Below, in pieces: positions 9,500-60,888 of a stretch of 64,000 nucleotides of DNA (the first letter of the stretch is position 1; the number at the start of each line of letters is the position of its first letter). The position numbers were made by a program, and so were the translations under genes. Source of the stretch: a virus (Duplodnaviria > Caudoviricetes); IMG/VR virus record IMGVR_UViG_3300002835_000006; one strand, 5' to 3'. Under the pieces are notes generated by a model. The model ran no database searches. It saw only the letters and a program-made list of their open reading frames with translations, and had not been told where the DNA came from.

Positions 9500-9500
9500 T

Positions 9501-10040: not shown

Positions 10041-10043
10041 ACA

Positions 10044-10367: not shown

Positions 10368-10372
10368 TTTTT

Positions 10373-12813: not shown

Positions 12814-12821
12814 TATTTATA
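12814..12821 (+). promoter_or_regulatory. Recurrent TATTTAT(A) upstream motif, putative phage promoter
   Basis: Also at 20616, 38906, 41907, 45187, 63757 (+) and upstream of many minus-strand starts (1730, 5865, 12762, 26188, 49016, 53282, 54101, 55261, 58292). Confidence 0.6.
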
Positions 12822-45470: not shown

Positions 45471-46146
45471 ATATCTTGTCCTTATATCCAAAGAAATCTT
45501 TAATCCAATTTCCTCCTTTAAAAAAATCTTTTAAGTCCTCAGGTATTCCTGAGTTGACATCAGGTGAATTAGTATTATTCTCTGCTTTTTTTGAAACATC
45601 AGATGACGCCATTACACCACTTGATGTTCCAGCTTCTACATCCCCATCATATGCTTCATCAGTCATATTAGACACGTGAACATGGTCATCATGACCCTCG
45701 AAACCAAATGTCAAAAAAGCTTTCGGGTTACTTTTACCCTCCGAGTTCTTTTTGTAACCCATGTTCAAAAGAGTATTTGTAAATTTCTCAACGACTTCTC
45801 TATTTTTCGGAGCAACAACTACTTTTTTACCATCAGGTAGAATTATAAAATCGATATCCACTGCACCTTGTCTCCAATGTCTACTGACATGACCACTTGC
45901 ACTGAGTTTACGATGTCCTGTTTTCGCCCAATCAATTGTGATTTTGAAATTATTTACTTCAGCTGCTTTTTGTAAATCATCTAAAAGGGCTTTAGGTAAC
46001 TTATCCTTTTTTGTTCTTCCGTGGAAAATTAAATTTGGGTATTTTGATTCACTAGATTCTACATCAATCAAAACCTCATTGATAAAATTTTTGTTGGATA
46101 AAATCTTATCGAAAGTTTGCGATATTTTATGTTCTACTATATTCAC
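45469..46146 (-). CDS. Putative M15/LAS-type zinc peptidase
   Basis: SRHWRQGAVDID (H-x6-D) and GHDDHVHVS (HxH). Confidence 0.6.
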   Translation of the reverse strand: MNIVEHKISQTFDKILSNKNFINEVLIDVESSESKYPNLIFHGRTKKDKLPKALLDDLQKAAEVNNFKITIDWAKTGHRKLSASGHVSRHWRQGAVDIDFIILPDGKKVVVAPKNREVVEKFTNTLLNMGYKKNSEGKSNPKAFLTFGFEGHDDHVHVSNMTDEAYDGDVEAGTSSGVMASSDVSKKAENNTNSPDVNSGIPEDLKDFFKGGNWIKDFFGYKDKI

Positions 46147-46170
46147 AAATCATAAATATTTGAGAAATAA

Positions 46171-46195
46171 AAAAAACCTGTTAGACAGGTTTTTT
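46171..46195 (-). terminator. Terminator
   Basis: AAAAAACCTG-TTAGA-CAGGTTTTTT. Confidence 0.65.
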
Positions 46196-46483
46196 ATAAC
46201 TTAGAACTTTCTTCCCTTTAGTATCTGAAGGAGGTGGGACAATAGGTTTTTTTTCCTTTTTAGTAGGTGGATTCAATCCGAATTTAATCCATTTGTACCA
46301 AATTCTTTCATGAATATAATATTGGATTGGTTTATATATAAGCTCAACAACACCAAAAGCTGCACCAATTTTTATATCTCCCGAAACCCACCACATACCG
46401 AGAAAACCTATTGTTGTACTTAAAATTCTATAAGTAATTGTTTTAGCTAAATGCCTTTTGTAAGATACTTTAGTCTGACTCAT
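46181..46483 (-). CDS. DUF2061-like membrane protein
   Basis: KRHLAKTITYRIL...ELIYKPIQYYIHERIW. Confidence 0.75.
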   Translation of the reverse strand: MSQTKVSYKRHLAKTITYRILSTTIGFLGMWWVSGDIKIGAAFGVVELIYKPIQYYIHERIWYKWIKFGLNPPTKKEKKPIVPPPSDTKGKKVLSYKKPV

Positions 46484-46865
46484 ATTTTTCTATTGTTGGC
46501 GGACCACCAATACTGGCAAAACCACCGTCTCTGATAAAATTTATCCCAATCGCCCTTTCAATTTGAGGTGCTTCTGGGTCTTTATCATTAAATATAACGC
46601 GAGTGCCTCTTCCGCAATCCATAACTAACTGATGGTATTTCAATCCGACTTTTTCAAGTTCTTGTTTTGTGAATAATTCATATGTGGACGGTCTCGCCGT
46701 TGTAACAATTATGACCGAACCTTTTTCATATTGGTTGTTCAAATAATCGATTACGTCCTGTATAGGCTCTAAAATTGATTCAGAAAGTTTACTGAATTTT
46801 CTATATTTGACAATTGTACCATCAATGTCAACAAAAAAGGTCGGATTTTTAATTATTTTATTCAT
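46470..46865 (-). CDS. HAD-superfamily phosphatase (PNKP phosphatase-like)
   Basis: FFVDIDGTIV, TTARP, T...L...GL.Y..L.M, RVIFNDK. Confidence 0.75.
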   Translation of the reverse strand: MNKIIKNPTFFVDIDGTIVKYRKFSKLSESILEPIQDVIDYLNNQYEKGSVIIVTTARPSTYELFTKQELEKVGLKYHQLVMDCGRGTRVIFNDKDPEAPQIERAIGINFIRDGGFASIGGPPTIEKYESD

Positions 46866-46876
46866 ATGTAAAAATA

Positions 46877-46955
46877 AGTGGCCAGAGGTTGATGGGATTT
46901 TACCTCGGGGCTAGCACCCTTTCATTGCTGCAGCAATTACATCAACATAGCCACC
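46877..46955 (-). ncRNA. Structured multi-helix element upstream of the HAD/DUF2061 operon
   Basis: GGTGGC/GCCACT, GTTGATG/CATCAAC, ATTGC-TGCA-GCAAT, GGG...CCC. Confidence 0.45.
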
Positions 46956-46960
46956 ATTAG

Positions 46961-47086
46961 TTAGAATGTAATGTTATCGTTGTACTGTTCCCATTCGGAA
47001 CCTCCAACAAAAATATTTTCACTACTAACCGTTTTCTTTTTTTTCTTCAATTTCAGAAGATTTGAAATTTTTTTTATTAAGTTCAT
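46961..47086 (-). CDS. Possible 41-aa small ORF (not in the ORF track)
   Basis: MNLIKKISNLLKLKKKKKTVSSENIFVGGSEWEQYNDNITF; overlaps the upstream gene. Confidence 0.3.
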   Translation of the reverse strand: MNLIKKISNLLKLKKKKKTVSSENIFVGGSEWEQYNDNITF

Positions 47087-47243
47087 CAATCGATATTTCA
47101 TCATTTTTCCAGTTTTTCCAAATGTCAAAATCTTTCAAATCTTCAATTGTTTTTTCATGGATTAAAATGAAACCTTCAGGTGCACAACCTTGAAATTTCG
47201 TCTTTAATCCTTTTTCTTCAATAAGTTTTTTTAAATCAATCAT
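47025..47243 (-). CDS. Hypothetical protein
   Basis: 72-aa ORF. Confidence 0.6.
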   Translation of the reverse strand: MIDLKKLIEEKGLKTKFQGCAPEGFILIHEKTIEDLKDFDIWKNWKNDEISIDELNKKNFKSSEIEEKKENG

Positions 47244-47326
47244 TGTTCGAAGATAATCAAAATTAAACTATTTATTTCAGAAAACAAAGTCTTAGGACAT
47301 AAACTTTAAATAGTAATACATGGAAG

Positions 47327-47551
47327 ATGGTGAAAAAAATATCCACTTGGAGAAACACTCTCCAAGACAATTTATCTCAAGTGTTTCTAATGTTAGCACT
47401 TTTCTTCAATCCTTTTGGATTCGATGCCGTTCAGTATTCCCTGTTGTTACTGACAGGAAGTTTATGGAAAGCGAACTTCGTTTTGTATTGTATTGCGGCT
47501 TTCTTTTTTGGATTATATATCTATTTTCGAAAGTTATCTAAAGAGCTTTGA
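47327..47551 (+). CDS. Small two-TM membrane protein
   Basis: VFLMLALFFNPFGFD and FVLYCIAAFFFGLYIYF. Confidence 0.6.
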   Translation: MVKKISTWRNTLQDNLSQVFLMLALFFNPFGFDAVQYSLLLLTGSLWKANFVLYCIAAFFFGLYIYFRKLSKEL

Positions 47552-49016
47552 GTTCTCCTGATTTGAATGCATCAAAGTTTGGTCCTTTTGTTAAAAAGAA
47601 TTCTCTACCGACTTTTCTATATCCCAATATACCTGCGTTTTTTGCTGCGGCAAAGAATGAAGCGTGTTGACCTCTCAAATCACGTGGCGTGTACAAATGT
47701 TGACCATTGTGTCTTCTAAACATAATTTTCCCATAGTTATTTATTTTGACAATATACCCGATGTCTGTCAAAAAATCTAGTTTCGTTCCTATTTTCCCTG
47801 AATCTAAATAATCGACAAGTTTCTTCACCCAACCTTTATTTTTACTAAATGTATACCCATAAGTTGATGTAAACACCTTTGCAGAACCAACAACTTTTTG
47901 TTGTAATTCTGCGTTAGCTTTGACATAATCTAAAACTTTACTTGCGATATGATTTCTGACTGAATCGGCAGTGGTTTGTGGAAATCCTTGAATCATATAT
48001 TTGGAATCAAAACCCCAACCTTCCAAACCTAAATCGATAAAATCTTCTGTATCAATAAAATCATCAGTTCCCATAAACCCGATACTGGCAGAAAATGTTT
48101 TCCTATCCTCCGATTTATATGTTATAAAAATTACATAGGAATCAATCAGTTTTTTATTGTGAGAAATTGAAATTTGTCCGTTTGCATGACCAGGACCTAA
48201 GTCATTTATAGTTTCGAATCCTTCAGCTGATACAGTCAGATTACCATCTTTTCTCAAATACTTTTCTATTGTTCTGAGAGAAGCTCCTGATGAGTTGAAA
48301 ACTTCGTTCAAAAATGTTTCTTGTGCGGAGCTCGCAATTTTTTTATAATCCTTTTCTATAACTTCAATCATTTCGGGAAATGCGTATTTGAAAACTTCAA
48401 CTTCTCTTTCATTCATGCCGTCATCCTGAGAGTCCCAATATCTTGGATTACCCATTCCGTCATAATGAATTGCAACTTTTGAGTAGTTTTTATTTGTGGA
48501 ATTTGTTTTATTGATTACATAATACAAAGCTTGGCCTCCCGATGTATATCTTTTGAAGTGGTCATCAGATTGAGATGTTGTACACCATTTAGTATTTGCA
48601 CCATATTTACAAGACGCTTGGTGTGTTTTTGGTTTCATCACAAGAAATTTATCGTCCTCGTAAATTTTTTCTACTTGTTTTTCTAAAATTTTTTCTTTCT
48701 CTCTGACTCTGACAGGGTAAAGGGCTTTTTCAAGCTCAAGATAGCTTCCATATTGATTTATATCTTTTTTTTCTAACTGAGATTGATATTTGTCAAAATC
48801 TTTGATTGCCCAGATTGTACTCTCAATATCATCTTCTAATGTCTCACTATCCTTAGGTAAAGTTCTCAATACAAAGTCAGTGTATTTGTGATTGAAATCT
48901 TTTAAATCAGAAATATTCAAAATAAATTCTAAATCTTGTTCATTAAATTTAGTAGAATATTTTTTCTTCAAATCTTCCTTTCGACCTTCTTTAATTAAAA
49001 TGGAAACCAACTTCAT
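47538..49016 (-). CDS. Protein with KYG.xT.WCTT motif (paralog of 15408..16382)
   Basis: Start moved to ATG 49016 (MKLVSILIKEG) after TATTTATA; the longer ORF runs into the tRNA. Confidence 0.75.
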   Translation of the reverse strand: MKLVSILIKEGRKEDLKKKYSTKFNEQDLEFILNISDLKDFNHKYTDFVLRTLPKDSETLEDDIESTIWAIKDFDKYQSQLEKKDINQYGSYLELEKALYPVRVREKEKILEKQVEKIYEDDKFLVMKPKTHQASCKYGANTKWCTTSQSDDHFKRYTSGGQALYYVINKTNSTNKNYSKVAIHYDGMGNPRYWDSQDDGMNEREVEVFKYAFPEMIEVIEKDYKKIASSAQETFLNEVFNSSGASLRTIEKYLRKDGNLTVSAEGFETINDLGPGHANGQISISHNKKLIDSYVIFITYKSEDRKTFSASIGFMGTDDFIDTEDFIDLGLEGWGFDSKYMIQGFPQTTADSVRNHIASKVLDYVKANAELQQKVVGSAKVFTSTYGYTFSKNKGWVKKLVDYLDSGKIGTKLDFLTDIGYIVKINNYGKIMFRRHNGQHLYTPRDLRGQHASFFAAAKNAGILGYRKVGREFFLTKGPNFDAFKSGELKAL

Positions 49017-49030
49017 ATGGTATAAATATA

Positions 49031-49058
49031 AAGAAAGGGAGATTAAAATCTCCCTTTC
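49031..49058 (-). terminator. Terminator after tRNA-Arg
   Basis: GAAAGGGAGAT-TAAA-ATCTCCCTTTC. Confidence 0.75.
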
Positions 49059-49061
49059 AAA

Positions 49062-49136
49062 TGGTAGTCCCGCGTGGAATCGAACCACGAATAACTGCTT
49101 AGAAGGCAGTGGTTATATCCGTTTAACTACAGGACC
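49062..49136 (-). tRNA. trnR: tRNA-Arg(UCU), CCA encoded
   Basis: ACTGC-CTTCTAA-GCAGT; GGTCCTG/CGGGACT, A73, CCA. Confidence 0.93.
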
Positions 49137-49140
49137 ATTG

Positions 49141-49491
49141 TCATTTCCAAAATAGTTGTATCAAAAGTATAACAAAACTCAGACATAAACAAATTAAAGT
49201 TTTTGTTGTCATAGGTTCTTTTAATATCCACCAAGCCATAACGCTAAAAACTATAACTCCAATTGAAAAACCAATTATTCTGTTGGGCCAAGTTTCTCCA
49301 TTATACAAACTAACCATTTCTCTACTTGCTAAGATAACTAAATAACTAATCGGAATTCCAATTATTGTCATTAAAAATGGATTACGTTTAATCCAATTAT
49401 TCCACAGATGACCTTGCAATTGATAAAAAGTGAAAGCCTGAGAAAACAAATAAACTGAAAGAATAAATACTATTGATAAAACCTTGTTCAT
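49141..49491 (-). CDS. Four-TM membrane protein (SMR/EamA-like)
   Basis: Four helices; W.ILKEPMT.KT.I.L resembles DMT-superfamily termini. Confidence 0.6.
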   Translation of the reverse strand: MNKVLSIVFILSVYLFSQAFTFYQLQGHLWNNWIKRNPFLMTIIGIPISYLVILASREMVSLYNGETWPNRIIGFSIGVIVFSVMAWWILKEPMTTKTLICLCLSFVILLIQLFWK

Positions 49492-49524
49492 TGTAACAAA
49501 TATATTAAAAGTTTGTTACAAAAA

Positions 49525-49550
49525 AAACCCCTCGTTTAAGGGAGGGGTTT
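49525..49550 (-). terminator. Terminator
   Basis: AAACCCCTC...GAGGGGTTT with flanking A/T runs. Confidence 0.7.
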
Positions 49551-49553
49551 CTT

Positions 49554-49892
49554 TTAGAGTGTTCTGAGAACATAACCGATTACGGATAATAGTCCGAGAA
49601 TTAGTGGTACTTGTGTTTTTGCTCCACCCATAAGTGATAGGTGAAGAACAACAGCTGCACTCATAAATGAGGTAATCAACACCATTCCGTAGAGTGATGT
49701 CATTGGGATTGCAAGTAAGATTACTCCGAGAAGTTCTCCAACTCCTGTGAGCATTCTGTACTTTTCCAACTTCATGAATGCGAAGTTTCCGACCATTTCT
49801 TGTGTTCCGATGATTTTCTCAATTGCGCCTTTGCCGAGCATTGCTCCAACAACAGCGGTGAGAGCCCATCCAATCATTGCTAAAATTGTCAT
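49554..49892 (-). CDS. DoxX-like membrane protein
   Basis: GAIEKIIG..EMV.NF...GVGELLGVILL.IP.T...G. Confidence 0.75.
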   Translation of the reverse strand: MTILAMIGWALTAVVGAMLGKGAIEKIIGTQEMVGNFAFMKLEKYRMLTGVGELLGVILLAIPMTSLYGMVLITSFMSAAVVLHLSLMGGAKTQVPLILGLLSVIGYVLRTL

Positions 49893-49994
49893 AAGTTTAA
49901 TTTTAAGATAAAAAAATAGATGAATAATTTGACAATGTCAAATAAAAAACCCCCACCACGAGGGTGAGGGTTAGTTACTGCGAATAATGAAATA

Positions 49995-52900
49995 TTATCT
50001 TCCGAAGATATATCTTAAACCGAGTTGACCTTGCCAAACGTCAAATACAGATGTATTCCACTGATAAGTGTCTCTGATGAGACCTACAGTAGTTGTACCA
50101 TTTGCGTTGAGGATTGGTTGAGTTGACAATCTGTAGACAGGTTCACCAGCTGTGTTAGTTGATGAATAGCTAAGGATTGCAGGGTTTGTAGCTCTTTGAG
50201 ATACACCCCAATCGTTGTTTAACATGTTACCAAAGTTCAAGATATCCAATCTGATTTGGAATGTGTTTCTGTGACCTTTGATATCGATGAAGAAATCTTG
50301 TTGAACAGACAAATCAAATCTGTGTAACATTGGAATAGCGAGAGCGTTTCTCTCAGCGTATTGACCTCTTCTTGTAGAAAGATATTTGTCTTGGTCGATG
50401 TAAGCGTCAAAAGCTGCTTGTTGTTGAGCTTCAGTGAAAGTTACACCGCCTGAAGTGAATTGAGCAAATTTGATGTCCGAACCTTTGTTTGGAACAAAGA
50501 TAAGTTCATTGTTATTCACTCTGTCACCGTTTAGGTCACCCGCTACGAAGTAGCTGAATGGGTTACCTTGTTGTCCTACATAACCTAAAGTTACAGTAGT
50601 TGCACCAGCACCTTTCTTAGCACCGTTCTCTAATCTATAACCAAGAAGACCAACAAATCTGTTAGGAATCCAGTTATCAGAGAAAGCTAAAGGAAGGTCG
50701 TTGTTTCCGTTGATTGCTCTTGCTGACTGCCAAGAACCAGAAGCAATTGAACCAGCACTCATGAAGTCTTTAGAAAGTGATGTAGTCCAAGCTGCAGAAC
50801 CCCAAAGACCTTTTTGGATTGGATATTTTAACTCGATAGTTGCTGATGTATTGTAAGCGCCATTTCTGTTTGTTAAAACCGCACCCATAGATACGTTGTC
50901 ATTTACTCTTACGCCAGCATCGTTTCTTGCGAAAACAGGTCTTTTGTCAGGACCTGCGAATACTCCTACAGGAACATCCAAGTTAGCGTTGTAGTAATGA
51001 ACAGCGTTCAAAAATCTATTGTACATAAGTTCCACAGTACCTACAAATCCGAATGGTAACTTCTTGTCTGCAGCAAGGTTAGTTTTCCATACTTGTGGGA
51101 ATTTGTAGTTGGGGTCAGTGAAAGCTAAATCAAAAGTAGAAGGAAGTGTTGGTGTAGAAGGAATGAAGTATTGGTTAGGGTTAGCTGTGAAACCGTAGTT
51201 AGCAGCTGCCGCACCTGATACATCGATAAATCCTGTAAGAACACCATTGTTTCCTACTTGGTTTGAAACGAATACATAAGGAGGTCTACCTGTGAATACA
51301 CCGGAACCACCTCTTACTTGTAAATCATTTTTACCTTTGTGATTATAGTTGAAACCAATTCTTGGTTCGAAGAGAACTTGTGTTTTTGGTAAAACACCTG
51401 TGTTGAATTTCTCACCACCAGCGAAAGTCATTGCAGTTACTGCAGGATTTTCTAATGCCGTGTTTTCGAAACCAATTACAGCCGCTCTCAAACCACCTGT
51501 GATTTTCAAATTAGCGTTGTACTGATACTCATCCTGAACATAGAGGTCAAGACGAGATGTTTTCAAAACTTGCATTGGTTCGATTCCACCAGGTAACGCT
51601 GAGTAACGAAGTTGGAATCTTGCAGGAGCAAGAGTTGAAGGTCTTCCACCGTTTGCTAATGATTGATTAGCTGCGGTGTAGAAATCAGTCAAAGAATTGA
51701 AGATATATACACCGTTTGAAGCGGGGAAGAATAAGTTGTTAGAACGATATTTCTCGAAGTTAACACCAGCCACAATTGTGTGCTTGTCCATAAATTTGGT
51801 CAAGTTGTTAGTGATGTGGAAAGTGTTATAGTCCAACTTGTTACCAGGAGTGAATGGGTCAAATCCTACAGAAGCGTAGGTTGCGGTACCATTCATGATA
51901 TCAATAGTTGGAAACATCTGTGAAAGATATCCTCTATTTTCAATCTGCTTGTCATAACCAACAATTAGGTTGTTGTGTAAGGTATTAGAAAATTTGCTGT
52001 TGAGTTCTAATACTGAAGAACGTGTGTTATCTTGAATGATGTATCCACTGTTCTTAAAACTCATTGCGTTGAACTGAGTAGTTCTGTTTCCTGCACCTGC
52101 AGATTGAGAGTTTGAAATGTTTATCTCAGCTTCTGAATTGTGCCAAACATAACGAGCAGTCAATTTGTGCTTGTCGTTGATGTTCCAGTCCATTCTCACC
52201 AAGAATTTCTCAGAAGTGTTTGAGTTGTTGTACCCTTCCCAAGGACCCGTCTCATAATTGAAATTTGTTCTCATGAAATCAGAAAGAGTTTTCATATCTG
52301 AATACAGAACTCTTGAGATTTGAGAACCAGCTAAAGGTGAACCTTGTGAAATCCAAGTCGTACCAGGTTCAGTTTTTGTAAGGTTTTCGTAGTTACCAAA
52401 AATGAATAATTTGTTTTTGATAATTGGAGCACCTAATCTGAAACCTCTTGTAGTTTCTTCGAATTTCGAAGCGGTTACAGTAGTTCCTTTAGCGTTGTTA
52501 CCAACATAACGTTGGTTGTCTCTGTTAAACTGATAATAAGAACCCTCTACTTTGTTGGAACCACTTCTTGTAACAGCGTTGATTCCAGCACCAACGAAAC
52601 CACTTTGACGAATGTCAAATGGAGCTACGTTGATTTGTAGTTGGTCAATCGCATCCAAAGAGATTGCAGTTGAACCAGTTCTACCACCAGCCTGAGCTGA
52701 AGAACCAAGACCGAAACCGTTGTTAAACTGAGAACCGTCAATTGTGAAGTTGTTCAATCTGCTATCAGCAGCTCCGAAAGAACGACCGTCACCCATTGGG
52801 TTGTACTTGGTGATTCCGTCAATAGTTCTTGCACCAGTAATGGGAACAGAAGTTAGTTCTCTCCTTCCAAATTGCTGAGACGCACCGGTTCTACCTGAGC

Positions 52901-53282
52901 TGAAAATGTTGTTTTTGTTTGAATTTACAACTACTTCAGTAAGGGTTTTAACTTCATTGACCAACACAATTTCCAAGGTAGTTGAAATACCAAGATTTGT
53001 ATTGATGTCTGTAAGCTCCTTCATTTTGTAACCCACATTAGAAACGTGAATTACATAAGGACCACCAGGACGCACAGCAGGAATGTTGAAAATACCAACT
53101 TTGTTTGTGATTGCACGATACTCAGAACCCGTAGGTTGGTGAACAGCATGAACCGACGCTCCCGCTAAAGCATCTCCTTTTTCATTTTTCACTACACCAG
53201 ACAGGGCAGAAGTTGTAATTTGCCCGAAAGATGCGAGAGTCACGAACAAGGATAAAAGTGACATCATGATTTGCTTTTTCAT
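49995..53282 (-). CDS. TonB-dependent outer-membrane receptor (Oar-like, N-terminal carboxypeptidase-regulatory-like domain)
   Basis: Signal peptide; GQITTSALSGVV...L.GASV.A.H.PTG; NNFTIDG, SLDAIDQLQINVAPFD.RQSGFVGAGINAVTRSG plug; C-terminal QLGLRYIF. Confidence 0.9.
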   Translation of the reverse strand: MKKQIMMSLLSLFVTLASFGQITTSALSGVVKNEKGDALAGASVHAVHQPTGSEYRAITNKVGIFNIPAVRPGGPYVIHVSNVGYKMKELTDINTNLGISTTLEIVLVNEVKTLTEVVVNSNKNNIFSSGRTGASQQFGRRELTSVPITGARTIDGITKYNPMGDGRSFGAADSRLNNFTIDGSQFNNGFGLGSSAQAGGRTGSTAISLDAIDQLQINVAPFDIRQSGFVGAGINAVTRSGSNKVEGSYYQFNRDNQRYVGNNAKGTTVTASKFEETTRGFRLGAPIIKNKLFIFGNYENLTKTEPGTTWISQGSPLAGSQISRVLYSDMKTLSDFMRTNFNYETGPWEGYNNSNTSEKFLVRMDWNINDKHKLTARYVWHNSEAEINISNSQSAGAGNRTTQFNAMSFKNSGYIIQDNTRSSVLELNSKFSNTLHNNLIVGYDKQIENRGYLSQMFPTIDIMNGTATYASVGFDPFTPGNKLDYNTFHITNNLTKFMDKHTIVAGVNFEKYRSNNLFFPASNGVYIFNSLTDFYTAANQSLANGGRPSTLAPARFQLRYSALPGGIEPMQVLKTSRLDLYVQDEYQYNANLKITGGLRAAVIGFENTALENPAVTAMTFAGGEKFNTGVLPKTQVLFEPRIGFNYNHKGKNDLQVRGGSGVFTGRPPYVFVSNQVGNNGVLTGFIDVSGAAAANYGFTANPNQYFIPSTPTLPSTFDLAFTDPNYKFPQVWKTNLAADKKLPFGFVGTVELMYNRFLNAVHYYNANLDVPVGVFAGPDKRPVFARNDAGVRVNDNVSMGAVLTNRNGAYNTSATIELKYPIQKGLWGSAAWTTSLSKDFMSAGSIASGSWQSARAINGNNDLPLAFSDNWIPNRFVGLLGYRLENGAKKGAGATTVTLGYVGQQGNPFSYFVAGDLNGDRVNNNELIFVPNKGSDIKFAQFTSGGVTFTEAQQQAAFDAYIDQDKYLSTRRGQYAERNALAIPMLHRFDLSVQQDFFIDIKGHRNTFQIRLDILNFGNMLNNDWGVSQRATNPAILSYSSTNTAGEPVYRLSTQPILNANGTTTVGLIRDTYQWNTSVFDVWQGQLGLRYIFGR

Positions 53283-53301
53283 GTTTGTTTTGTTTATTGG
53301 T

Positions 53302-53409
53302 TTATAAATAAAAAATCCCGAAGACATGCGCCAACGGGATTATTGTATTTTCAAAATTGTTAAAATAGTTCAGTCGATAAAAACTCATAAAATTTCTCCA
53401 CCCTTTCAT
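53302..53409 (-). CDS. Possible 35-aa uORF running through the upstream hairpin
   Basis: MKGWRNFMSFYRLNYFNNFENTIIPLAHVFGIFYL; downstream of TAACTTTG at 53448. Confidence 0.3.
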   Translation of the reverse strand: MKGWRNFMSFYRLNYFNNFENTIIPLAHVFGIFYL

Positions 53410-53519
53410 AACTACCCTGTCGAAAACAAAAATCCCAATCGACAACACAAAGTTAATAATTTTTTAATTGAGAATCAATAGGCGAAAAAAAACCCCCGAT
53501 TTCTCGGGGGGTCTCTTGG

Positions 53520-53633
53520 TTACTTTTTAAGCTTACCAATAAGTTTTGTGATATGTGGTCCCACCACAACTCCGACAACGACACCTACTAAAAAGTGCCA
53601 ATGCCATAAAAATTCAAAATTTTCCATACTCAT
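53520..53633 (-). CDS. 37-aa single-TM protein (not in the ORF track)
   Basis: MSMENFEFLWHWHFLVGVVVGVVVGPHITKLIGKLKK, followed by a terminator-like hairpin. Confidence 0.55.
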   Translation of the reverse strand: MSMENFEFLWHWHFLVGVVVGVVVGPHITKLIGKLKK

Positions 53634-53654
53634 TTTGGTTTAATTTTTAGACTT

Positions 53655-54101
53655 TTAAAGGTGATATTTTAATCCAAATCCTGTAAGACTTGAATGTTTA
53701 CCATCTTTAACAGTTCTTAGAATTGATTGTTCTAAGCACCATCTTTTGTTTATCCTATAACCAATGGAAGGAGCATAAGTAAATTGTCCTTTTTGTCCAT
53801 TGAAGAAGGTAACACCGCCATCAAGACCGATATGGAGTCCTTTTTTGAGGTGCTTACGGTATCCAACTAAAGCCGGCATTCTAACGAAACCTGCTTTATT
53901 CTGCATGAAACCAAAAGAGACGTTCCAATTTTTTTTGGAAAAATCTACTTTTTGACCCCAAGCTTTGGAATCCCAATCAACATTTTTTGCAATCGGTGCC
54001 ATAGCTGTTGCTCCAACGGAAATGTCCCATCCCCCTTTTTTCTGAGCAAATGTTGCTAATGAGAATACCATAGCAAAAAATAACAAAATGTGTTTTTTCA
54101 T
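53655..54101 (-). CDS. Small outer-membrane beta-barrel-like protein
   Basis: Signal peptide; amphipathic strands; C-terminal GFGLKYHL. Confidence 0.7.
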   Translation of the reverse strand: MKKHILLFFAMVFSLATFAQKKGGWDISVGATAMAPIAKNVDWDSKAWGQKVDFSKKNWNVSFGFMQNKAGFVRMPALVGYRKHLKKGLHIGLDGGVTFFNGQKGQFTYAPSIGYRINKRWCLEQSILRTVKDGKHSSLTGFGLKYHL

Positions 54102-54132
54102 TTGTTTTTTGTTTATTGATTTATAAATAAAA

Positions 54133-54170
54133 ATCCCATTCACAGACTCTTTCGAGTTGCGGATGGGACT
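54133..54170 (-). terminator. Terminator-like hairpin with GAAA loop
   Basis: Minus strand GTCCCATCCGCAACTC-GAAA-GAGTCTGTGAATGGGAT then TTTT. Confidence 0.6.
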
Positions 54171-54193
54171 GATATTTCTGTATTATAAATATT

Positions 54194-54601
54194 TCAATTT
54201 TCCGAAATATTCATTTTTTCAGTTTGTTCTCTGAGATAGTTACATTCAAATTCGGAGCAAGTTTGGGGTCTGATTTCATAAACCATACATGATTTGACCT
54301 GTGGATTGTAGAAAATACAAGGTAGTTTGGGATTAAAAAAATCTAATCTAAGAGCGGGAAAATTTTTGGGGTCTTGCCATGTTGATTTGTTAGGAAAAAG
54401 AGATTTACCTTCTTCATAGGTGATAAAAACTTCTTTGAACATGATTTCTCTGCCTAATTTGTTCGATAACCTATCAACGAAATCATATGCATCAAGGTGA
54501 GGACCTATGATGAAATCCCTTTCAGCTACTGTACAACATCCTCCGTGATTACCAGGAAAACCCATACATCTGTTACTACATATATTACAATCTGTACCCA
54601 T
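54194..54601 (-). CDS. YkgJ-family Cys-cluster (Zn/Fe-chelating) protein
   Basis: CNICSNRC...GGCC, PCIFY...C.VYEIRPQTC.EFEC. Confidence 0.8.
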   Translation of the reverse strand: MGTDCNICSNRCMGFPGNHGGCCTVAERDFIIGPHLDAYDFVDRLSNKLGREIMFKEVFITYEEGKSLFPNKSTWQDPKNFPALRLDFFNPKLPCIFYNPQVKSCMVYEIRPQTCSEFECNYLREQTEKMNISEN

Positions 54602-54604
54602 AAA

Positions 54605-55261
54605 CTATTTTAATTTTGTTATTCCATATACCCAATTTAGGGGTAGAGGTTCTGTTTTTTTGATTTTTTTATTTTCATAACCATTTGTAATCCATTTTGT
54701 ACCAAATTGTGAATTTTTATTCCCTTTTTGGCTTATTGAATTTTTTTCACCTATTTTTTTCTTTGTTTCTTCGTTATGTTTTTTTCCGAGCCAGGAGTAA
54801 GAGTCTTGTATTGATTTTAATTTTCCATTTTTATGATTTTTTTCATTTGACGCAATACGGGATAGTGAAATTTTTTTTCTATAATTTGGGTCGGATTTCA
54901 ACATTTCTCTATGTTTTATACCCGCGGCTTTAGAACACTTGTATTGGTGAGTTGGATTATTAAACCCGCCAGTACCACCAGGTTTCAAATTATAACAATT
55001 CGGGTCATTTAGAAAATTCTCGTTTATAATTTCCTTTTCTCTTTTTATCAACTCTTCTCTATTGATACACCATTCGAGAATTTCGAATTTGAAATTATTC
55101 GGACCGTATTTTCTTATTGCAAATCTTAAATTAGTTCCACTCCCTATGTAACCATCGTTCAGGTTTGTTGTTGAATGCATTCCAACGTAAAATTTATTAT
55201 TGAGGAGGTTTGTTGTCTTGTATATAAAATGATATTTTTTTGACTTATTTGAGTTCGACAT
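54605..55261 (-). mobile_element. Free-standing GIY-YIG homing endonuclease (Seg-like) with NUMOD3-like motif
   Basis: HFIYKTTNLLNNKFYVGMH...DGYIGSG; CYNL..GG; GKKHNEETKKKI. Confidence 0.85.
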
Positions 55262-55298: not shown

Positions 55299-55688
55299 TG
55301 GAGAAGACGGGAGTCGAACCCGTGTCTTGTTCGCGATAACTATAAGTGACTACACGTTTATTACAACATTGTTTCTCAATGTTCCGAAATATTAGGTTTG
55401 ATATATGTGAGAAACCTACCTACAAACAACTTGGTCTCAGAATTATTTTAAACGAGCTCTGACCTGTGACCCGTATAATGGACTTCTGTTCCTAGGTTAT
55501 ATGTCCTAACCGACCCGACGTTGTCAAAACTATCAAGCTTTAACAACAGCTTCCTCAGCGATAAGACCGAGAGCAGCCATTTTAGCAAAAGTATTGCCAG
55601 TTGTGTTTTAAATCAGTTTTTAAGGAGGTAATTTAGCTCCTACGTGCCACCTATACCTATACACGCCAATCGATGCCATTTCTTCCCC
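55299..55688 (-). ncRNA. ssrA: tmRNA
   Basis: 5' GGGGAAG pairs with 3' CTTCTCC-A giving G3.U70; T-arm GGTTCGACTCC; resume context ACAACT-GGC; tag frame ends TGA TAG. Confidence 0.92.
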
Positions 55689-55754
55689 GTAATTTCAAAT
55701 AACTTTTACAAATATAAGAATAAATATTTTAATTCCAAACCTGTATTTATCAAT

Positions 55755-56798
55755 ATGGGAAAATTTGATTCTTTTGTTGCTTTAAAAAATTTTATTCAAG
55801 GTAAAATTGATTCTTCAGATTTGAAAAATCTCATACCACAAATTTATAAAGTGGATGTGAATTATGATGATTTGAGTAAAAGTTTGGTAACATATGAGTT
55901 TGAAAATGAATCAGATTTATTGAAAATGATTGATATTTCTGATGATGATATTTGGTTTTATAATAGTATCTCAAATCCATATACAGGTTATTACATATAC
56001 GGTCCTGATAACTCTGAAACCGATTTTGAAGAAGGTTATGGTTTATGGGATGAGTTGGATGGTGATAATTGGGAAAAATTTGAAACTATTTCAAGATTTG
56101 TTATGAAACAACCCTTTTCACAAGACATTGATTTTCTTAGTGTCTTCGCTCACACTTTGCAAAGACTTTTCCCAAAAAATGTTCGAGCGATGATAAATGA
56201 TTATTCACAAGAAAGGGATAATCAAATGAAAGATGCTGCACAAAATGTAATTCAAAGAGATTTGGATGATTATTTTTCGCAACTTGGTATGGAGTATAAA
56301 AACGGTTTTTTAAAATTTGAAATAGGTAAAGTATTTGAACAATATGTTTATAGTGGTCAATTGACACTGTCATTCGAAAAAATTTTGAAAAAATATCTAA
56401 AATCAGAATATACGCCTGAAGGTGGGTGGAGTGATAGTACTTGGGAATATCAATCGTCAGATGGTTTTGACAGTGAATACTTCAATAGGGAGGTCGAAAA
56501 AGAATTAGATTCCATAATTGAAAAAATTATGGAAAATGAAGAGGAGTCAAAAAACTTTATTTCCATGGTTGAAAGAATTGAAAGTAAATTCAAACAAGGT
56601 GTACTGTATGATTTGCCAAAGGATAGGTCTAATAAAGTTAAATTCTCCATCCAAGCCTACGATTATCCAAAACAGGAAGTTATTGTTAAATTGAGAAAAG
56701 ATTTGAAGGAAAAGACATTTTCCATGAAAGAACAGAATTTTTATAATTTATTATATCAACCTGAATTATTTAAAATTGGAGAATTGCACGATTTGTAG
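55755..56798 (+). CDS. Hypothetical acidic protein
   Basis: Start moved to ATG 55755 after TATTTATC; the longer ORF overlaps the tmRNA. Confidence 0.7.
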   Translation: MGKFDSFVALKNFIQGKIDSSDLKNLIPQIYKVDVNYDDLSKSLVTYEFENESDLLKMIDISDDDIWFYNSISNPYTGYYIYGPDNSETDFEEGYGLWDELDGDNWEKFETISRFVMKQPFSQDIDFLSVFAHTLQRLFPKNVRAMINDYSQERDNQMKDAAQNVIQRDLDDYFSQLGMEYKNGFLKFEIGKVFEQYVYSGQLTLSFEKILKKYLKSEYTPEGGWSDSTWEYQSSDGFDSEYFNREVEKELDSIIEKIMENEEESKNFISMVERIESKFKQGVLYDLPKDRSNKVKFSIQAYDYPKQEVIVKLRKDLKEKTFSMKEQNFYNLLYQPELFKIGELHDL

Positions 56799-56810
56799 TA
56801 CATTTGTGTA

Positions 56811-57641
56811 ATGCAAAACGATTTATTATTCCTGAAAGAAGTATTATCAGTTCCTACTGTAACTTATCAAGAAGAATTTATGATAAGATTCATACTCGAT
56901 TGGCTAGAAGAAAATAAAATTGAAAATTATGTTGATGAGCGTGGTAACATTTATGCGACCAAAAAAATTTCCGAAGTGGATAATGATTTTTATTATCCTT
57001 GTGTTGTATCTCATACTGATACTGTTCACTCCATTAGACATTTGATAATTCGAGAAGAGCAGTTACCAAATGCTCAAGGAGAGTTAAAACTATCCTTAAA
57101 GGCTTACGACGTAAACGGTTCTCCTACAGGTATCGGTGGAGATGATAAAGCCGGAGTTTTTGCATGTCTGAAATTATTATCAGAGTTACCCTATTTGAAA
57201 GCTGCTTTCTTCGTGTCAGAAGAAACTGGCTGTCACGGGTCAAGAAATTGTGATATTAAATTTTTCGACAACGTAGGATATGCAATTCAATTTGACGCAC
57301 CCGAGAATTGGATGGTTACTGAAACATGTTCTGGTCAAGTTATGTTTGACCGAAACTCAGAATTTTTCAAAAGTTGTGATGAAGTGTTGACAGAGAACAT
57401 GCATAAGGATTACATAGATTATATGGTTCACCCCTATACTGATGTTTATGCATTGAGAAGTAAATTTGATTTTTCTTGTATAAATTTTTCGATTGGATAT
57501 TACGACTATCATTCACCTGATGAATATGTCGTTGTTGAAGATGTTTTCAACGGAATAAAGATGGGAAAACTTATGATTGAGAAATTGGGATATAAATTAC
57601 ACTTCAAAAAAGCGAAAGACCACGGAAAATTCTATTTATAA
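56811..57641 (+). CDS. M28/M20-family metallopeptidase
   Basis: GNIY.TK, VSHTDTVH, GGDDKAG, SEETGCHGS, QFDAP, GYYDYHSPDE. Confidence 0.85.
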   Translation: MQNDLLFLKEVLSVPTVTYQEEFMIRFILDWLEENKIENYVDERGNIYATKKISEVDNDFYYPCVVSHTDTVHSIRHLIIREEQLPNAQGELKLSLKAYDVNGSPTGIGGDDKAGVFACLKLLSELPYLKAAFFVSEETGCHGSRNCDIKFFDNVGYAIQFDAPENWMVTETCSGQVMFDRNSEFFKSCDEVLTENMHKDYIDYMVHPYTDVYALRSKFDFSCINFSIGYYDYHSPDEYVVVEDVFNGIKMGKLMIEKLGYKLHFKKAKDHGKFYL

Positions 57642-58292
57642 AAATTTTTCTAATTTTTCTATAAAGGGTTTCACCATAGGGTGGTCTTGTATATCTGAAT
57701 ATTCCATACCCTTTGATTTCATATGTTTTATGGTGTCAATAATTCTTTGTAAACTTGAACCCACAAATTTTGATGCTTGAGGATATTGTTGTATAAATTC
57801 CGACAATTTGAATATTTTTTTTGATTCTTCAATTGGCATTTTCAAACTGAAAACTAATCTTCCTAACATATTTTTCGCATATTGGTCCGCATCTAACTCC
57901 ATCTCCCAATATTGTTGATAAATTTTCTCGAAATCTTCCAAATCGTAATCTGTTAGAGGATTGGGCATTTTTATTTCTGAAATTTGTTGTTCGTGTCTTA
58001 TTTCATGAAATAAAGTATAAAGAAAATCCCCCAAGGTAGCCATTTGACTTGGAGCACAAATTATAACTTGGTCTCTTGTTCTCACTCCTGCATATGATGG
58101 ACAAGCATTTAAAAACTTCACATTGTAATTTGATTTTTCTATAAAATTTTTAACAAAACTTCTAATCATCGGTATCCTGTCTAAATAATTTTTTGGAAAA
58201 ATAGATTTGAAATTTTCCAAAACTTTGTCAAGATTTGAAGTGGGGTTTTCTGAGTCAGACTCTCTTAAAATTTTTCTTATCAATTCACGCAT
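57636..58292 (-). CDS. Hypothetical protein with HExxH motif
   Basis: LFHEIRHEQQ...WEMELDAD. Confidence 0.65.
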   Translation of the reverse strand: MRELIRKILRESDSENPTSNLDKVLENFKSIFPKNYLDRIPMIRSFVKNFIEKSNYNVKFLNACPSYAGVRTRDQVIICAPSQMATLGDFLYTLFHEIRHEQQISEIKMPNPLTDYDLEDFEKIYQQYWEMELDADQYAKNMLGRLVFSLKMPIEESKKIFKLSEFIQQYPQASKFVGSSLQRIIDTIKHMKSKGMEYSDIQDHPMVKPFIEKLEKFL

Positions 58293-58305
58293 TTCATATA
58301 AATAC

Positions 58306-58333
58306 AAAAAAAGGGACTTATCGTCCCTTTTTT
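58306..58333 (-). terminator. Terminator after the Clp ATPase gene
   Basis: AAAAAAAGGGAC-TTATC-GTCCCTTTTTTT. Confidence 0.8.
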
Positions 58334-60327
58334 GTTATTTTTATTTCTTCTTTCTCAACTTTCAAATGATAGGTTTTCCCTTCGATGAATTTTCCTGTGA
58401 GAACTTCCTCAGAAATTAAATCTTCAACTTTGTCTTGAATTGCTCTTTTCAAGGGTCTTGCTCCATACAATTCGTCATATCCTATTTTTGAAAGGTATTC
58501 AATAAGACTATCATCGTATGTGACAGTATATTTTAATTCAGAAAGCCTGTTAGAAAGTTTTTTCAATTCAATCTCCGTGATTTTTTTAATATCGTCTTTT
58601 GATAAAGAATTGAAAACAATCGTATCATCAATCCTATTCAAGAACTCAGGAGAAAAGAAATTTTTCATTTCTTTCATGAGAACCTGTTTTCTGGCTTCCT
58701 CATTTGAATAGGAATTAGAGAAACCAATCCCTGTACCGAAATCTTGTAATTTTTTGACTCCTAAGTTTGTTGTCAAAATAATCAAAGTATTTTTAAAATT
58801 GATTTTTCTACCGAGAGAATCTGTCACGTGTCCTTCATCAAGAATTTGTAACAAGATTGTGAAAACGTCTTTATGTGCTTTTTCTACCTCGTCGAAAAGG
58901 ATAACTGAGTAAGGTTTGTTTTTAACCTTTTCAGTTAGTTGTCCCCCTTCATCGTATCCGACATAACCAGGAGGGGCACCTACTAATTTGGATACAGTGT
59001 GTTTTTCTTGGTATTCACTCATGTCAACTCTGATAAGAGCTTCTTCTGAACCAAACATCTCTTTCGCAAGTTGTTTTGCCAAGTGTGTTTTACCGACGCC
59101 AGTAGAACCGAGAAAAATAAATGAACCGATTGGCCTGTTGGGGTCTTTGATACCCAAGCGGTTTCTTTTAATTGATTTAACCACTTTGATTACGGCCGAA
59201 TCTTGTCCAATAACCTTACCTGTTAGCTCCTTATCCAAGTTTATCAGAGATTTTGTATCATCAACACTCATTTTGTTTACAGGAATTTTGGTCATATTTG
59301 AAACAACATCATAAACCATGTTCAACGTGATTTCTTGTTTTTGTTTCTCCATTTCCTCATCAAATTTCTTTTTCTCCGAATCTAATTTATCCAACAACTT
59401 TTTTTCTCTATCTCGTAATTGCGCCGCTTGTTCGTAATTCTGTTTTTTTACAACATCGATTTTTTGTTGTTTGATTTCCGCAGCCTTTTTTTTGAGTTCC
59501 TCAATAACCTCGGGAATTTTCACTTCTGTTTGCATACGTGCACCAACCTCATCTAAAATGTCAAATGCTTTGTCAGGAAATTCTCGGTCTGTAATATAAC
59601 GTTCAGCAAGTTTGACACAAACCTCAATGACCTCATCAGAGTACCTGACCTTGTGATAAGATTCATATTTGGGACGAATGTTCTTCAGAATTTCTATAGT
59701 TTCAGCAACAGATGAAGCCTCAACAATAATTTTTTGGAATCGTCTTTCAAGAGCACCATCCTTTTCAATGTTTTTTCTGAACTCATCTAAAGTTGTGGCC
59801 CCAATAATTTGAATCTCACCACGTGATAAAGCGGGTTTGAAAATATTGGAACCATCCATAGAACCGGCAGAATTACCCGAACCAACCAAAGTGTGCACCT
59901 CGTCAATAAAAACTATAATGTTTGGGTTTGTCTGTAATTCTTCAATAATAACTTTCATCCTCTCTTCAAATTGTCCTCTATATTTTGTTCCCGCCACAAC
60001 AGAGGTCAGGTCTAAGTTTACAATTCTTTTATCAATAAGATTTTTGGGACATTCACCGCTTACAATTTTCATTGCTAAACCCTCTACAATTGCGGTTTTA
60101 CCACATCCCGGTTCTCCTAAGATAATTGGATTGTTTTTCTTGCGTCTTGATAGGATTTGTGCAATCCTCAAAATTTCTCGGTCTCTACCAATTACAGGGT
60201 CTAATTTACCTTCGGACGCAAGTTTATTTAAATCTCTACTGAAGTTGTCCAAAACAGGAGTAGAACTGTCGGAAGTCTTTTGCTTCCTACTTGTTTTCAT
60301 GTCGTCATCATCCATTAGTTCATTCAT
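58318..60327 (-). CDS. clpC: ClpC-type AAA+ ATPase lacking the N-terminal domain
   Basis: Two NBDs (GEPGCGKT, GSTGVGKT), UVR-like M-domain (YEQAAQLRDRE), IGF loop (GTGIGFS), GARPLKR. Confidence 0.88.
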   Translation of the reverse strand: MNELMDDDDMKTSRKQKTSDSSTPVLDNFSRDLNKLASEGKLDPVIGRDREILRIAQILSRRKKNNPIILGEPGCGKTAIVEGLAMKIVSGECPKNLIDKRIVNLDLTSVVAGTKYRGQFEERMKVIIEELQTNPNIIVFIDEVHTLVGSGNSAGSMDGSNIFKPALSRGEIQIIGATTLDEFRKNIEKDGALERRFQKIIVEASSVAETIEILKNIRPKYESYHKVRYSDEVIEVCVKLAERYITDREFPDKAFDILDEVGARMQTEVKIPEVIEELKKKAAEIKQQKIDVVKKQNYEQAAQLRDREKKLLDKLDSEKKKFDEEMEKQKQEITLNMVYDVVSNMTKIPVNKMSVDDTKSLINLDKELTGKVIGQDSAVIKVVKSIKRNRLGIKDPNRPIGSFIFLGSTGVGKTHLAKQLAKEMFGSEEALIRVDMSEYQEKHTVSKLVGAPPGYVGYDEGGQLTEKVKNKPYSVILFDEVEKAHKDVFTILLQILDEGHVTDSLGRKINFKNTLIILTTNLGVKKLQDFGTGIGFSNSYSNEEARKQVLMKEMKNFFSPEFLNRIDDTIVFNSLSKDDIKKITEIELKKLSNRLSELKYTVTYDDSLIEYLSKIGYDELYGARPLKRAIQDKVEDLISEEVLTGKFIEGKTYHLKVEKEEIKITKKGR

Positions 60328-60492
60328 GGTATATAATTTTTACAAAGATGTATCAAAAAATGTACACAAACAAATAATTTGTAATATTGTCATAATAAAT
60401 TTTTTTTTCATGACAATCTGTCATTTATTTAGTTTCGGCACACAACTTGACTCTAATTATATAAATAATAAACCTCAAAAACAAAAAAAACT

Positions 60493-60888
60493 ATGATTTT
60501 ATCTAACAACGAATTGAACAGAATTTTCGACGACATTTTCAATGGGACGTCCAAACCTTATTTCAAAACCTCAGTAATTTCAAAAAATCCTGATGAGGAG
60601 AATTATGAAATAAATCAAACAAAAGATGGTGCATATCTTTTCTTTGAGGTTCCTGGTTTTAATAAATCAAATCTCAAAGTAGAAATGGAAGACGGAATTC
60701 TAATCATTCAAGGAAAAAGAATTTATAAATTGAATGGTGAAGAAAAAACAAAATCTGTATCAAAAGAATTCAAAATTGGAAAGGAATATAATTCATCTGA
60801 GATTGAGGCAACAATAGAAGATGGTCTACTAACGGTATTCGTACCTAATTACAAAAAACAAGAAAAAAAGAGAATCAATCTCCTGTGA
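60493..60888 (+). CDS. Hsp20/alpha-crystallin small heat-shock protein
   Basis: EVPGFNKSNLKVEMEDGIL.I.G...IEATIEDGLLTV.VP. Confidence 0.88.
   Translation: MILSNNELNRIFDDIFNGTSKPYFKTSVISKNPDEENYEINQTKDGAYLFFEVPGFNKSNLKVEMEDGILIIQGKRIYKLNGEEKTKSVSKEFKIGKEYNSSEIEATIEDGLLTVFVPNYKKQEKKRINLL

Follow-up and report, generated by a model that had tools for sequence, protein, structure and literature searches.

Phages are usually seen as using the outer-membrane transporters of their hosts for landing. What, then, would a phage do with such a transporter of its own? The question is raised by the virus record IMGVR_UViG_3300002835_000006 (Caudoviricetes), from which we analysed a stretch of 64,000 nucleotides (nt), here called the window; it forms part of an 80.6-kb viral record. 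Around positions 49,995 to 54,170, the minus strand of the window carries a gene for a TonB-dependent transporter, genes for a 37-amino-acid (aa) peptide and for a small outer-membrane barrel, and the leaders and terminators that belong to them. An initial annotation of this region had proposed co-regulated, highly expressed phage proteins of the outer membrane, serving either nutrient uptake or receptor replacement and superinfection exclusion. We find that the transporter is complete and intact by its predicted fold and motifs, that it is under strong purifying selection, and that it is coded like the most abundant protein of the phage. On balance, we lean modestly towards a working TonB-dependent transporter that stems from a Flavobacteriales-type host and has been retained in these T4-like jumbo phages since their ancestor acquired it; it is likely to be a nutrient importer, and its leader would serve as an expression cassette.

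A complete TonB-dependent transporter by predicted fold and motifs

The reading frame of the transporter is open across 49995-53327 (minus strand), and its start, the ATG at 53282, is backed by every relative, which gives a protein of 1095 aa and bears out the full-length receptor of about this size in the initial annotation. Two Pfam families match the protein, PF13620 (CarboxypepD_reg, aa 27-107, E 5e-16) and PF25183 (the OMP_b-brl_4 barrel). The AlphaFold2 model, made from an alignment of 105 sequences, has a predicted local distance difference test score (pLDDT) of 92.9 and consists of a signal helix (aa 2-15), an N-terminal extension folded as a beta-sandwich (aa 25-107), a compact domain up to about aa 245, and DSSP strands that can be assigned as 22, with periplasmic turns of 2-8 residues alternating with long loops. 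The sole internal stretch of low confidence or disorder, segment 113-122, holds the TonB-box motif LTEVVV. The protein begins with a Sec signal peptide (MKKQIMMSLLSLFVTLASFG-Q) that is kept in relatives, and both the TonB box, (L/M)x(E/D)V(V/T)V, and the C-terminal RYxF beta-signal are conserved across all phage and bacterial members of the family. In Foldseek, about 1000 columns align to full-length TonB-dependent transporters, plugs included (E 1e-36 to 1e-21); FusA (4zgv) and YddB (6ofr) rank best and siderophore receptors next. We infer from these features that the protein resides in the outer membrane and depends on TonB. Neither a TonB_C nor an ExbB gene was found in the three near-complete relatives that we searched, and thus the transporter would have to run on the Ton system of the host.

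The transporter does not have the marks of the SusC/RagA type, since no NCBIfam model matched it and no SusD-like gene is found among its neighbours, which are the 37-aa peptide, a DoxX_2 protein and unknowns. A PF13620 extension ahead of plug and barrel is instead the architecture of the Oar subclass. As this architecture is dominant among the TonB-dependent transporters of Bacteroidetes (PMC6434023), it gives no indication of secretion. PHROGs has no family for the transporter, the peptide or the small barrel.

Selection on the transporter is strong and differs between its parts. The pairwise ratio of nonsynonymous to synonymous substitution rates (dN/dS) is 0.06-0.14, and by region it is 0.04 for the predicted plug (aa 125-245), which is also the best-conserved portion with an identity of 0.88, 0.09 for both the strands and the outer loops, and 0.20 for the N-terminal extension. 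The ratio of outer-loop to strand divergence is 1.04 in the phage proteins, and 1.0-1.29 across four bacterial clades. Neither a decoy nor a receptor in an arms race would be expected to keep its TonB box, plug and loops in this way; by sequence comparison, the pattern makes a passive decoy or blocker less likely than a working importer.

Single origin and long retention in a clade of T4-like phages

Homologues of the transporter with 69-98% identity occur at 36 IMG/VR loci and on further metagenome contigs. The gene order around them is the same in dozens of viral contigs that were assembled independently from many samples and measure 57-328 kb; the flanks kept in the lineage of the window include a ClpB-like ATPase, an M20-like peptidase, a 116-aa open reading frame (ORF) and an ORF of about 500 aa. 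Relatives of 245-324 kb are rated 97-100% complete, and a T4-type (Gp23) major capsid gene is present in 3/3 of the near-complete relatives searched. A search with ClpB divides the carriers of the transporter into at least three lineages, with 86% identity, with 59% identity and with no ClpB homologue.

A maximum-likelihood tree built from 108 sequences places all 30 distinct phage transporters in a single clade (support 100), which is nested within Bacteroidota. Its sisters are a Bacteroidota metagenome-assembled genome (MAG), the contig of which we judged to be bacterial from its neighbouring genes, and then Flavobacterium psychroterrae and relatives, with 56-62% identity. The phage copies thus nest inside a cellular family and persist under selection, as is characteristic of a host-derived auxiliary gene.

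The region could also be explained as an assembly chimera, in which a host contig has been fused to phage DNA, and the initial annotation had named this as the outcome that would overturn it. The GC content is indeed 0.38-0.40 at the transporter and about 0.33 around it, and the codon usage differs from that of the neighbours. Against this, dozens of independent assemblies, near-complete phage genomes among them, repeat the junctions and the gene order unchanged, the phage copies are monophyletic and just 56-62% identical to any bacterial gene, and the codon bias is like that of phage capsid genes and unlike that of the bacterial homologues. We regard the chimera as refuted by these observations, and give it next to no probability; the genes are genuine phage genes.

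Phage-encoded transporters of this type were published in 2021 and 2026, with uptake and receptor masking as the proposed roles. They include the ‘SusC’ protein of Mar_Mega_1 and the receptor of a related megaphage (PMC9723777), and the receptors of Lak phages, which come with 8-strand barrels and with metatranscript support (bioRxiv 10.64898/2026.10.24.761521); the latter study catalogues 1,603 beta-barrel proteins of huge phages, 678 of them from freshwater. The locus described here resembles these in that a phage with a genome above 200 kb and a Bacteroidota host carries a complete 22-strand receptor, sometimes with 8-strand barrels and with transcripts in metatranscriptomes. It differs in that it forms part of a separate freshwater clade, in T4-like phages that infect Flavobacterium-type bacteria. 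The new findings are a single origin followed by long retention, the regional dN/dS, codon adaptation to the level of capsid genes, a leader that a second barrel gene reuses, and an arrangement of a small upstream ORF (mini-ORF) and a hairpin. A whole clade of abundant lake phages makes its own transporter, apparently in amounts like those of capsid protein, and has preserved it intact while diverging for a long time.

Codon usage like that of the major capsid gene

The transporter ranks at the top among the real genes of the window in its third-position C content (0.227, against a window mean of 0.139 with a standard deviation of 0.038). For the two-fold degenerate codons that end in a pyrimidine, the share NNC/(NNC+NNT) is 0.631 for the transporter but 0.278 ± 0.069 for 60 other genes of the window, such that the transporter ranks first. 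The bias persists in relatives, with a rank of 1-2 within the lineage of the window, and a similar NNC share of 0.59-0.67 is found for the major capsid genes of three relatives. The bias is missing from AT-rich bacterial homologues (NNC share 0.20-0.37), which indicates that it was gained in the phage. The small barrel gene has no such bias (third-position C 0.155). The initial annotation was therefore right about the C-ending codons, but only in part about the scarcity of A-runs: runs of at least four A are fewer in the transporter than in its larger neighbours (6.4 per kb versus 12-32), but some small neighbours are equally low.

Parts of the stretch are also contained in 13 runs recorded as RNA. 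Contigs from RNA libraries, which are unfit for ranking genes or for judging expression levels or RNA ends (their end at 53323 and their depths included), span 50084-53323, 53739-54017 (part of the small barrel gene) and the transfer-messenger RNA (tmRNA) gene in two samples from a single study, with an identity of at least 99%; two further lake studies gave partial coverage. More than 9 kb of flanking genes are uncovered in the two best-covered RNA samples, and coverage is thin in the other two; in run X1, the stretches without RNA-contig coverage are 46000-49870, 54228-55195 and 55680-60500. Uncovered flanks of this length argue against carry-over of DNA in the covered parts. From its capsid-equal codon usage, supported by its presence in RNA libraries, the transporter looks very highly expressed, as the initial annotation had suggested.

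The tmRNA gene of the phage (55297-55688, minus strand; tag peptide GNTFAKMAALGLIAEEAVVKA) has the deepest RNA-contig coverage, with a word depth of 5-75 in four runs from three studies, and the tmRNA appears to be expressed in lakes.

One leader in front of two barrel genes

The initial annotation had described near-identical regions upstream of the two barrel genes, each with a hairpin that ends in GGGA and a U-run, and this description holds in both respects. The two leaders (Table 1) align with 32/37 identical positions and one gap, and the exact 23-mer TATTTATAAAYCAATAAACAAAA is confined to these two sites in the window, where 0.01 matches are expected by chance. An exact 26-mer of the leader is found in only 26 contigs of IMG/VR, all of this clade, with one copy per transporter, or with two at a spacing of about 820 nt in contigs that have the barrel. 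Between the hairpin and the ATG of the transporter, the sequence is near-invariant in 19 distinct relatives with a coding dS of 0.4-1.0, and the CA-rich 18-nt stretch ahead of the ATG is predicted to be unpaired.

The transporter hairpin has a folding energy of -14.8 kcal/mol (z -2.9) and an RNAalifold consensus of 9 pairs; only one pair with a double change was seen in this close group, and the structure is supported by conservation and not by covariation. More remote phage lineages have unrelated, stronger hairpins at the same place, which are also followed by a U-run and an A/C-rich stretch. The small-barrel hairpin has an energy of -19.8 kcal/mol (z -5.2), and its outer stem is kept between relatives while its inner stem varies. 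The small-barrel leader is conserved wherever the barrel adjoins the transporter and is not found at the barrel gene of L127, an unrelated phage. Conservation among relatives starts exactly at the second TATTTATAAT box, which shortly precedes the small-barrel hairpin. A scan of 53200-54300 against Rfam gave just sub-threshold chance matches.

The word TATTTATA occurs 22 times in the window, and 11-12 of these sites lie 2-20 nt ahead of ORF starts, that of PPK2 among them. PPK2 carries a 10-mer identical to that of both barrel genes (TATTTATAAA). We consider the TATTTAT box to be probably a phage promoter. The presence of one putative expression cassette in front of both genes is consistent with their co-regulation, as had been proposed.

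Further TATTTATA sites are, for example, at 12814, 20616, 38906 and 63757 on the plus strand and at 1742, 26198, 49028 and 58304 on the minus strand. Several lie only 2-4 nt ahead of an ATG, which implies leaderless or near-leaderless mRNAs.

The arrangement recalls the mobile regulatory cassettes of T4-type phages, which are units of promoter and stem-loop that flank variable genes, and the late promoters of T4 (TATAAATA). In both cases, a stem-loop and a short phage promoter box are reused before different accessory genes where a T4-like genome is variable. Unlike in those cassettes, the box here is TATTTAT(A), the full 26-mer is common to just these two genes, and the promoter is putative. 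Such reuse of the leader would show a T4-like phage plugging newly acquired envelope genes into an existing high-expression signal.

An accessory barrel and a membrane peptide

The two small genes upstream of the transporter were found where the initial annotation had placed a 37-aa transmembrane peptide and a small barrel. The AlphaFold2 model of the small barrel (pLDDT 86.7) has a signal helix and 8 strands, and Foldseek aligns it to the OprF N-domain, Ail, OmpX and OmpA transmembrane domains (template modelling (TM) score 0.55-0.69). No match was found in Pfam at E 0.01 or better (PF06316, PF01389 and PF13505 included), NCBIfam or PHROGs, and one relative of the small barrel has a precomputed match to PF10895. 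As in lambda Lom, Ail, OmpX and the OmpA transmembrane domain, the small protein is thus a phage-encoded, secreted eight-stranded barrel by predicted fold, but unlike Lom it has no sequence similarity to PF06316 or another Pfam family. Its neighbours in a language-model comparison are small Bacteroidota barrels (DUF2715/OMP_b-brl), which we take as a lead only.

Relatives of the small barrel form 87 clusters with 37-96% identity. In the two cases examined, homologues lie in other phage-type contexts, one amid queuosine-type genes, bS21 and a DNA polymerase. Only some relatives have the barrel and the peptide beside the transporter (the window, L001-4, L010/11, L028 and L041), and the peptide, for which Pfam, NCBIfam and PHROGs gave no family match, accompanies the barrel wherever the barrel adjoins the transporter (81-93% identity). 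The terminator that closes this unit is conserved in L001, L010, L028 and L041. By this distribution, the barrel and the peptide are an accessory cassette and no fixed partner of the transporter.

Table 1. Features of the transporter region, with positions in the window
Feature	Position	Strand	Details
Intrinsic terminator 3' of the transporter	49948..49972	-	10-pair stem, then T-run
TonB-dependent transporter gene	49995..53282	-	1095 aa; from Pfam, AlphaFold2, Foldseek, motif conservation and dN/dS
Transporter layout, N-terminal part			signal peptide aa 1-20; CarboxypepD_reg N-terminal extension aa 25-107; TonB box LTEVVV aa 114-119
Transporter layout, plug and barrel			predicted plug about aa 125-245; 22-strand barrel aa 246-1095; C-terminal LRYIFGR
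Transporter leader	53283..53319	-	hairpin 3' arm (GGGA), U-run, TATTTATAAA box at 53301-53310, CA-rich 18 nt, ATG
Mini-ORF, 28 codons (MSFYRLNYF...)	53302..53388	-	GGAG at 53396-53399; crosses the hairpin and stops within the TATTTATAAA box
Transporter hairpin	53314..53341	-	outer stem AATCCCG/CGGGATT, 2x2 internal loop, inner 3-bp stem, six U
Host-type promoter-like site	53448..53478	-	TTG, 20 nt, TAACTTTG; read from sequence
Strong intrinsic terminator closing the small-barrel/peptide unit	53493..53510	-	7 pairs (6 G-C), then 8 T
Single-pass membrane peptide, 37 aa	53520..53633	-	from translation; hydrophobic core, KLIGKLKK tail
Secreted eight-stranded outer-membrane barrel, 148 aa	53655..54101	-	from AlphaFold2 and Foldseek
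Small-barrel leader	54102..54137	-	copy of the transporter leader; TATTTATAAA at 54120-54129
Small-barrel hairpin	54132..54170	-	outer stem TCCCAT/ATGGGA, inner stem with GAAA loop, U-run
Second TATTTATAAT box	54182..54191	-	just upstream of the small-barrel hairpin

Import of a scarce nutrient as the likely function

If the transporter is a working importer, its signal peptide would export it for insertion into the outer membrane of the infected cell, where the TonB-ExbBD of the host would energise it via the conserved TonB box. It would be made in very large amounts, and we infer that its most likely purpose would be the import of a scarce nutrient that limits the production of a 250-320 kb genome. 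The leader cassette would combine an insulating, terminator-like hairpin and U-run, the TATTTAT box as a promoter that is probably specific to the phage, and a translation start that is unstructured and rich in U, A and C. A mobile cassette with a phage-type eight-stranded barrel and the 37-aa peptide would have come under a copy of this leader in one sub-lineage. If import of a limiting nutrient is true, giant phages directly alter what infected Flavobacteria take from lake water, and the phage proteins offer a handle on the substrate of a very common, uncharacterised family of Bacteroidota transporters.

The initial annotation had suggested nutrient uptake, possibly related to phosphate because of ppk2. 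The first part of this suggestion is favoured by the conservation of the TonB box, plug and loops, and the link to phosphate has three weak points in its favour: the TATTTATAAA box shared with PPK2, one bacterial orthologue beside PhoD, and secreted nucleases beside the transporter in other phage lineages. The bacterial case is the closest protein-cluster representative (L043:11320-13780, 57% identity), in which a fasciclin-domain protein and a PhoD phosphatase follow the transporter homologue; it is a single case, and this neighbourhood is not conserved in the relatives of L043. A secreted LTD protein adjoins another close bacterial homologue. Among the phages, a signal-peptide-bearing Endonuclease_NS protein (DNA/RNA non-specific) is encoded directly beside the transporter or at a distance of one gene in two other lineages (L023:9891-10490, L026:8904-9539 and L037:9860-10498), and a homologue of it is present in the same phage outside the window (G000:C1:71204-71839). 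Phosphorus- or nucleotide-containing compounds are thus the only substrate candidates with any hint, and these hints are anecdotal.

Several observations weigh against the transporter as a nutrient importer with the leader as its expression cassette. The Pfam Plug model PF07715 gave no match in the transporter, and the assignment of the plug rests on the predicted structure. Searches of the GenBank phages, as DNA and as protein, gave no relative of the small barrel and, for the transporter, only a gut fragment with 31% identity; no cultured phage was found to carry the transporter. A substrate could not be read from gene neighbourhood: the neighbours at the 18 closest bacterial loci are unrelated (an AraC regulator, PGI, an acyltransferase, a second transporter, fasciclin and PhoD, and an LTD/type IX secretion system (T9SS) protein), and we rejected this approach because it allows no inference. 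Were the TATTTAT box a late promoter, synthesis would peak late, which is odd timing for a nutrient importer. In addition, one RNA contig reaches 13 nt upstream of the TATTTAT box, such that not all transcripts can start there; this weak hint suggests that read-through transcripts past the box probably also exist.

The function of receptor replacement or superinfection exclusion, named in the initial annotation, would presuppose that the phage or its competitors adsorb to the orthologous transporter of the host; the phage would then supply a version of the transporter that is not recognised, or mask a receptor with the small barrel, such that infected cells and debris stop the uptake of further phage. 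TonB-dependent transporters and 8-strand barrels commonly serve as phage receptors; the small barrel has an OmpX/Ail-type fold, and its family is found in phage-type contexts at differing genome places in the cases examined; and the phage transporter is no closer than 56-62% to the nearest bacterial ones. The 8-strand barrel Lom of lambda blocks LamB, according to work cited in bioRxiv 10.64898/2026.10.24.761521. Yet a passive decoy or blocker requires neither a TonB box nor a plug, both of which are the most strongly conserved, no excess divergence is seen in the extracellular loops, and the promoter box resembles a late type where exclusion functions are usually early, so that we consider this explanation unlikely. 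Conservation of this kind also speaks against a role in release, in which the mass insertion of barrels late in infection would burden the beta-barrel assembly machinery (BAM) or weaken the outer membrane and so aid lysis: strong purifying selection on plug, TonB box and loops is unexpected for a bulk barrel. The capsid-level codon adaptation, the late-type promoter box and an endolysin homologue near the transporter in L022 would fit, but we know of no precedent for such a mechanism and hold it to be very improbable.

The transporter might also work outwards, as a conduit that exports phage envelope proteins (a lectin or T9SS cargo) across the outer membrane or displays them there. This would be in the manner of Oar of Myxococcus xanthus, which secretes the protease PopC and has a dedicated Ton system (PMC6434023). 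The phage protein shares with Oar the signal peptide, the CarboxypepD_reg extension, the TonB box, a plug as predicted, a 22-strand barrel in about 1100 aa and the lack of a SusD partner. Its best structural matches, FusA and YddB, both move proteins; they are likewise large transporters with long extracellular loops, with TM-scores of 0.69-0.71 on the target. In two relatives, L022 and L026, the transporter sits among homologues of an envelope operon of the window (7328-12762). However, the architecture is the commonest in Bacteroidetes (PMC6434023) and hence nonspecific, the envelope operon is 40 kb away in the window, no cargo candidate co-varies with the transporter, and neither Ton genes nor a dedicated Ton cluster nor a cargo were identified here. 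FusA and YddB are, moreover, only 10-11% identical in sequence, lack the N-terminal extension and have partner proteases of the M16 type (FusC/PqqL). With these differences, an outward conduit seems decidedly unlikely.

As a separate observation on these two relatives, homologues of window positions 12271-12762, 10373-12274, 7328-8782 and 9501-10040 lie within a few kb of the transporter (L022:12538-14837 and L026:10194-12812), and flank it in L026.

A mini-ORF that runs into the transporter hairpin

The transporter leader is itself preceded by a conserved region. Upstream of it, four elements recur in all relatives in the lineage of the window: a promoter-like TTGAYT...TAAYAT, the word TACTTAT, a Shine-Dalgarno-like motif rich in purines and, at -99 to -111, a start codon. 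The TTGAYT...TAAYAT is conserved at the position of 53448-53478, which would be a promoter of the host type (-33/-7). In 21/21 distinct leaders, the start codon begins a mini-ORF of 16-38 codons that reaches the 5' arm of the hairpin and stops within or beyond it; the +2 frame is open equally far in only 8/21. A Shine-Dalgarno-like motif precedes the start of the mini-ORF in about 17/21 leaders, and ordinary ORFs of the window in 4/80. In Bacteroidota, the anti-Shine-Dalgarno sequence is normally masked, with ribosomal protein bS21 helping. In several relatives, the control region of the transporter begins right after the 3' end of the tmRNA.

The arrangement raises the hypothesis that translation of the mini-ORF could be coupled to control of the hairpin. 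It resembles attenuators of the pyrBI type, which have a translated leader ORF that enters a terminator hairpin directly upstream of the regulated gene, in that the ORF runs into the hairpin just 5' of the transporter. Read-through would then occur only when ribosomes use the Shine-Dalgarno motif and trail the polymerase closely. Unlike the pyrBI type, no pause signal or alternative structure was found here. A search for an antiterminator found that the 141-nt leader folds no better than shuffled sequences (z -0.9), which weighs against attenuation, as does the use of all three frames across the hairpin among relatives and the in-frame fusion of the mini-ORF with the transporter in five of them. 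The richness of the mini-ORF in Tyr, Phe and Asn was rejected as a signal, since AT-rich sequence yields such codons by chance. One can join these elements into a single proposal, in which an attenuator that senses translation, novel for Bacteroidota, receives promoter input from the TATTTAT box, and the transporter together with the secreted non-specific nuclease of the phage would form a route for nucleic-acid-derived phosphorus and nucleotides, a nuclease-linked scavenging for genomes of about 300 kb. We consider this joint proposal rather unlikely.

Neighbouring genes

The window also encodes 16 transfer RNA genes, the tmRNA gene, a GIY-YIG homing endonuclease, PPK2 and carbamoyltransferases. 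GroEL follows the transporter in L020, L021, L030 and L036. Directly downstream of the transporter in the window, the DoxX_2-family membrane protein (49554-49892, minus strand) also has a high third-position C content (0.223) and is found only in some relatives.

On the other side, the interval between the tmRNA and the transporter is variable, being empty in L007, L012 and L015, and containing a CxxC-motif gene in others; the homing endonuclease is found there in the window only. This GIY-YIG/NUMOD3 endonuclease (54605-55261, minus strand; TIGR01453-like) lies between the tmRNA gene and the CxxC-motif gene, has no counterpart among the 42 related loci compared, and looks like a recent mobile insertion in a variable region. 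The unrelated phage L127, which carries a member of the small-barrel family, also encodes, at 6487-6666 and in neighbouring genes, bS21, GroES/GroEL, HSP20 and a 7-deazaguanine set of QueC, QueF and FolE.

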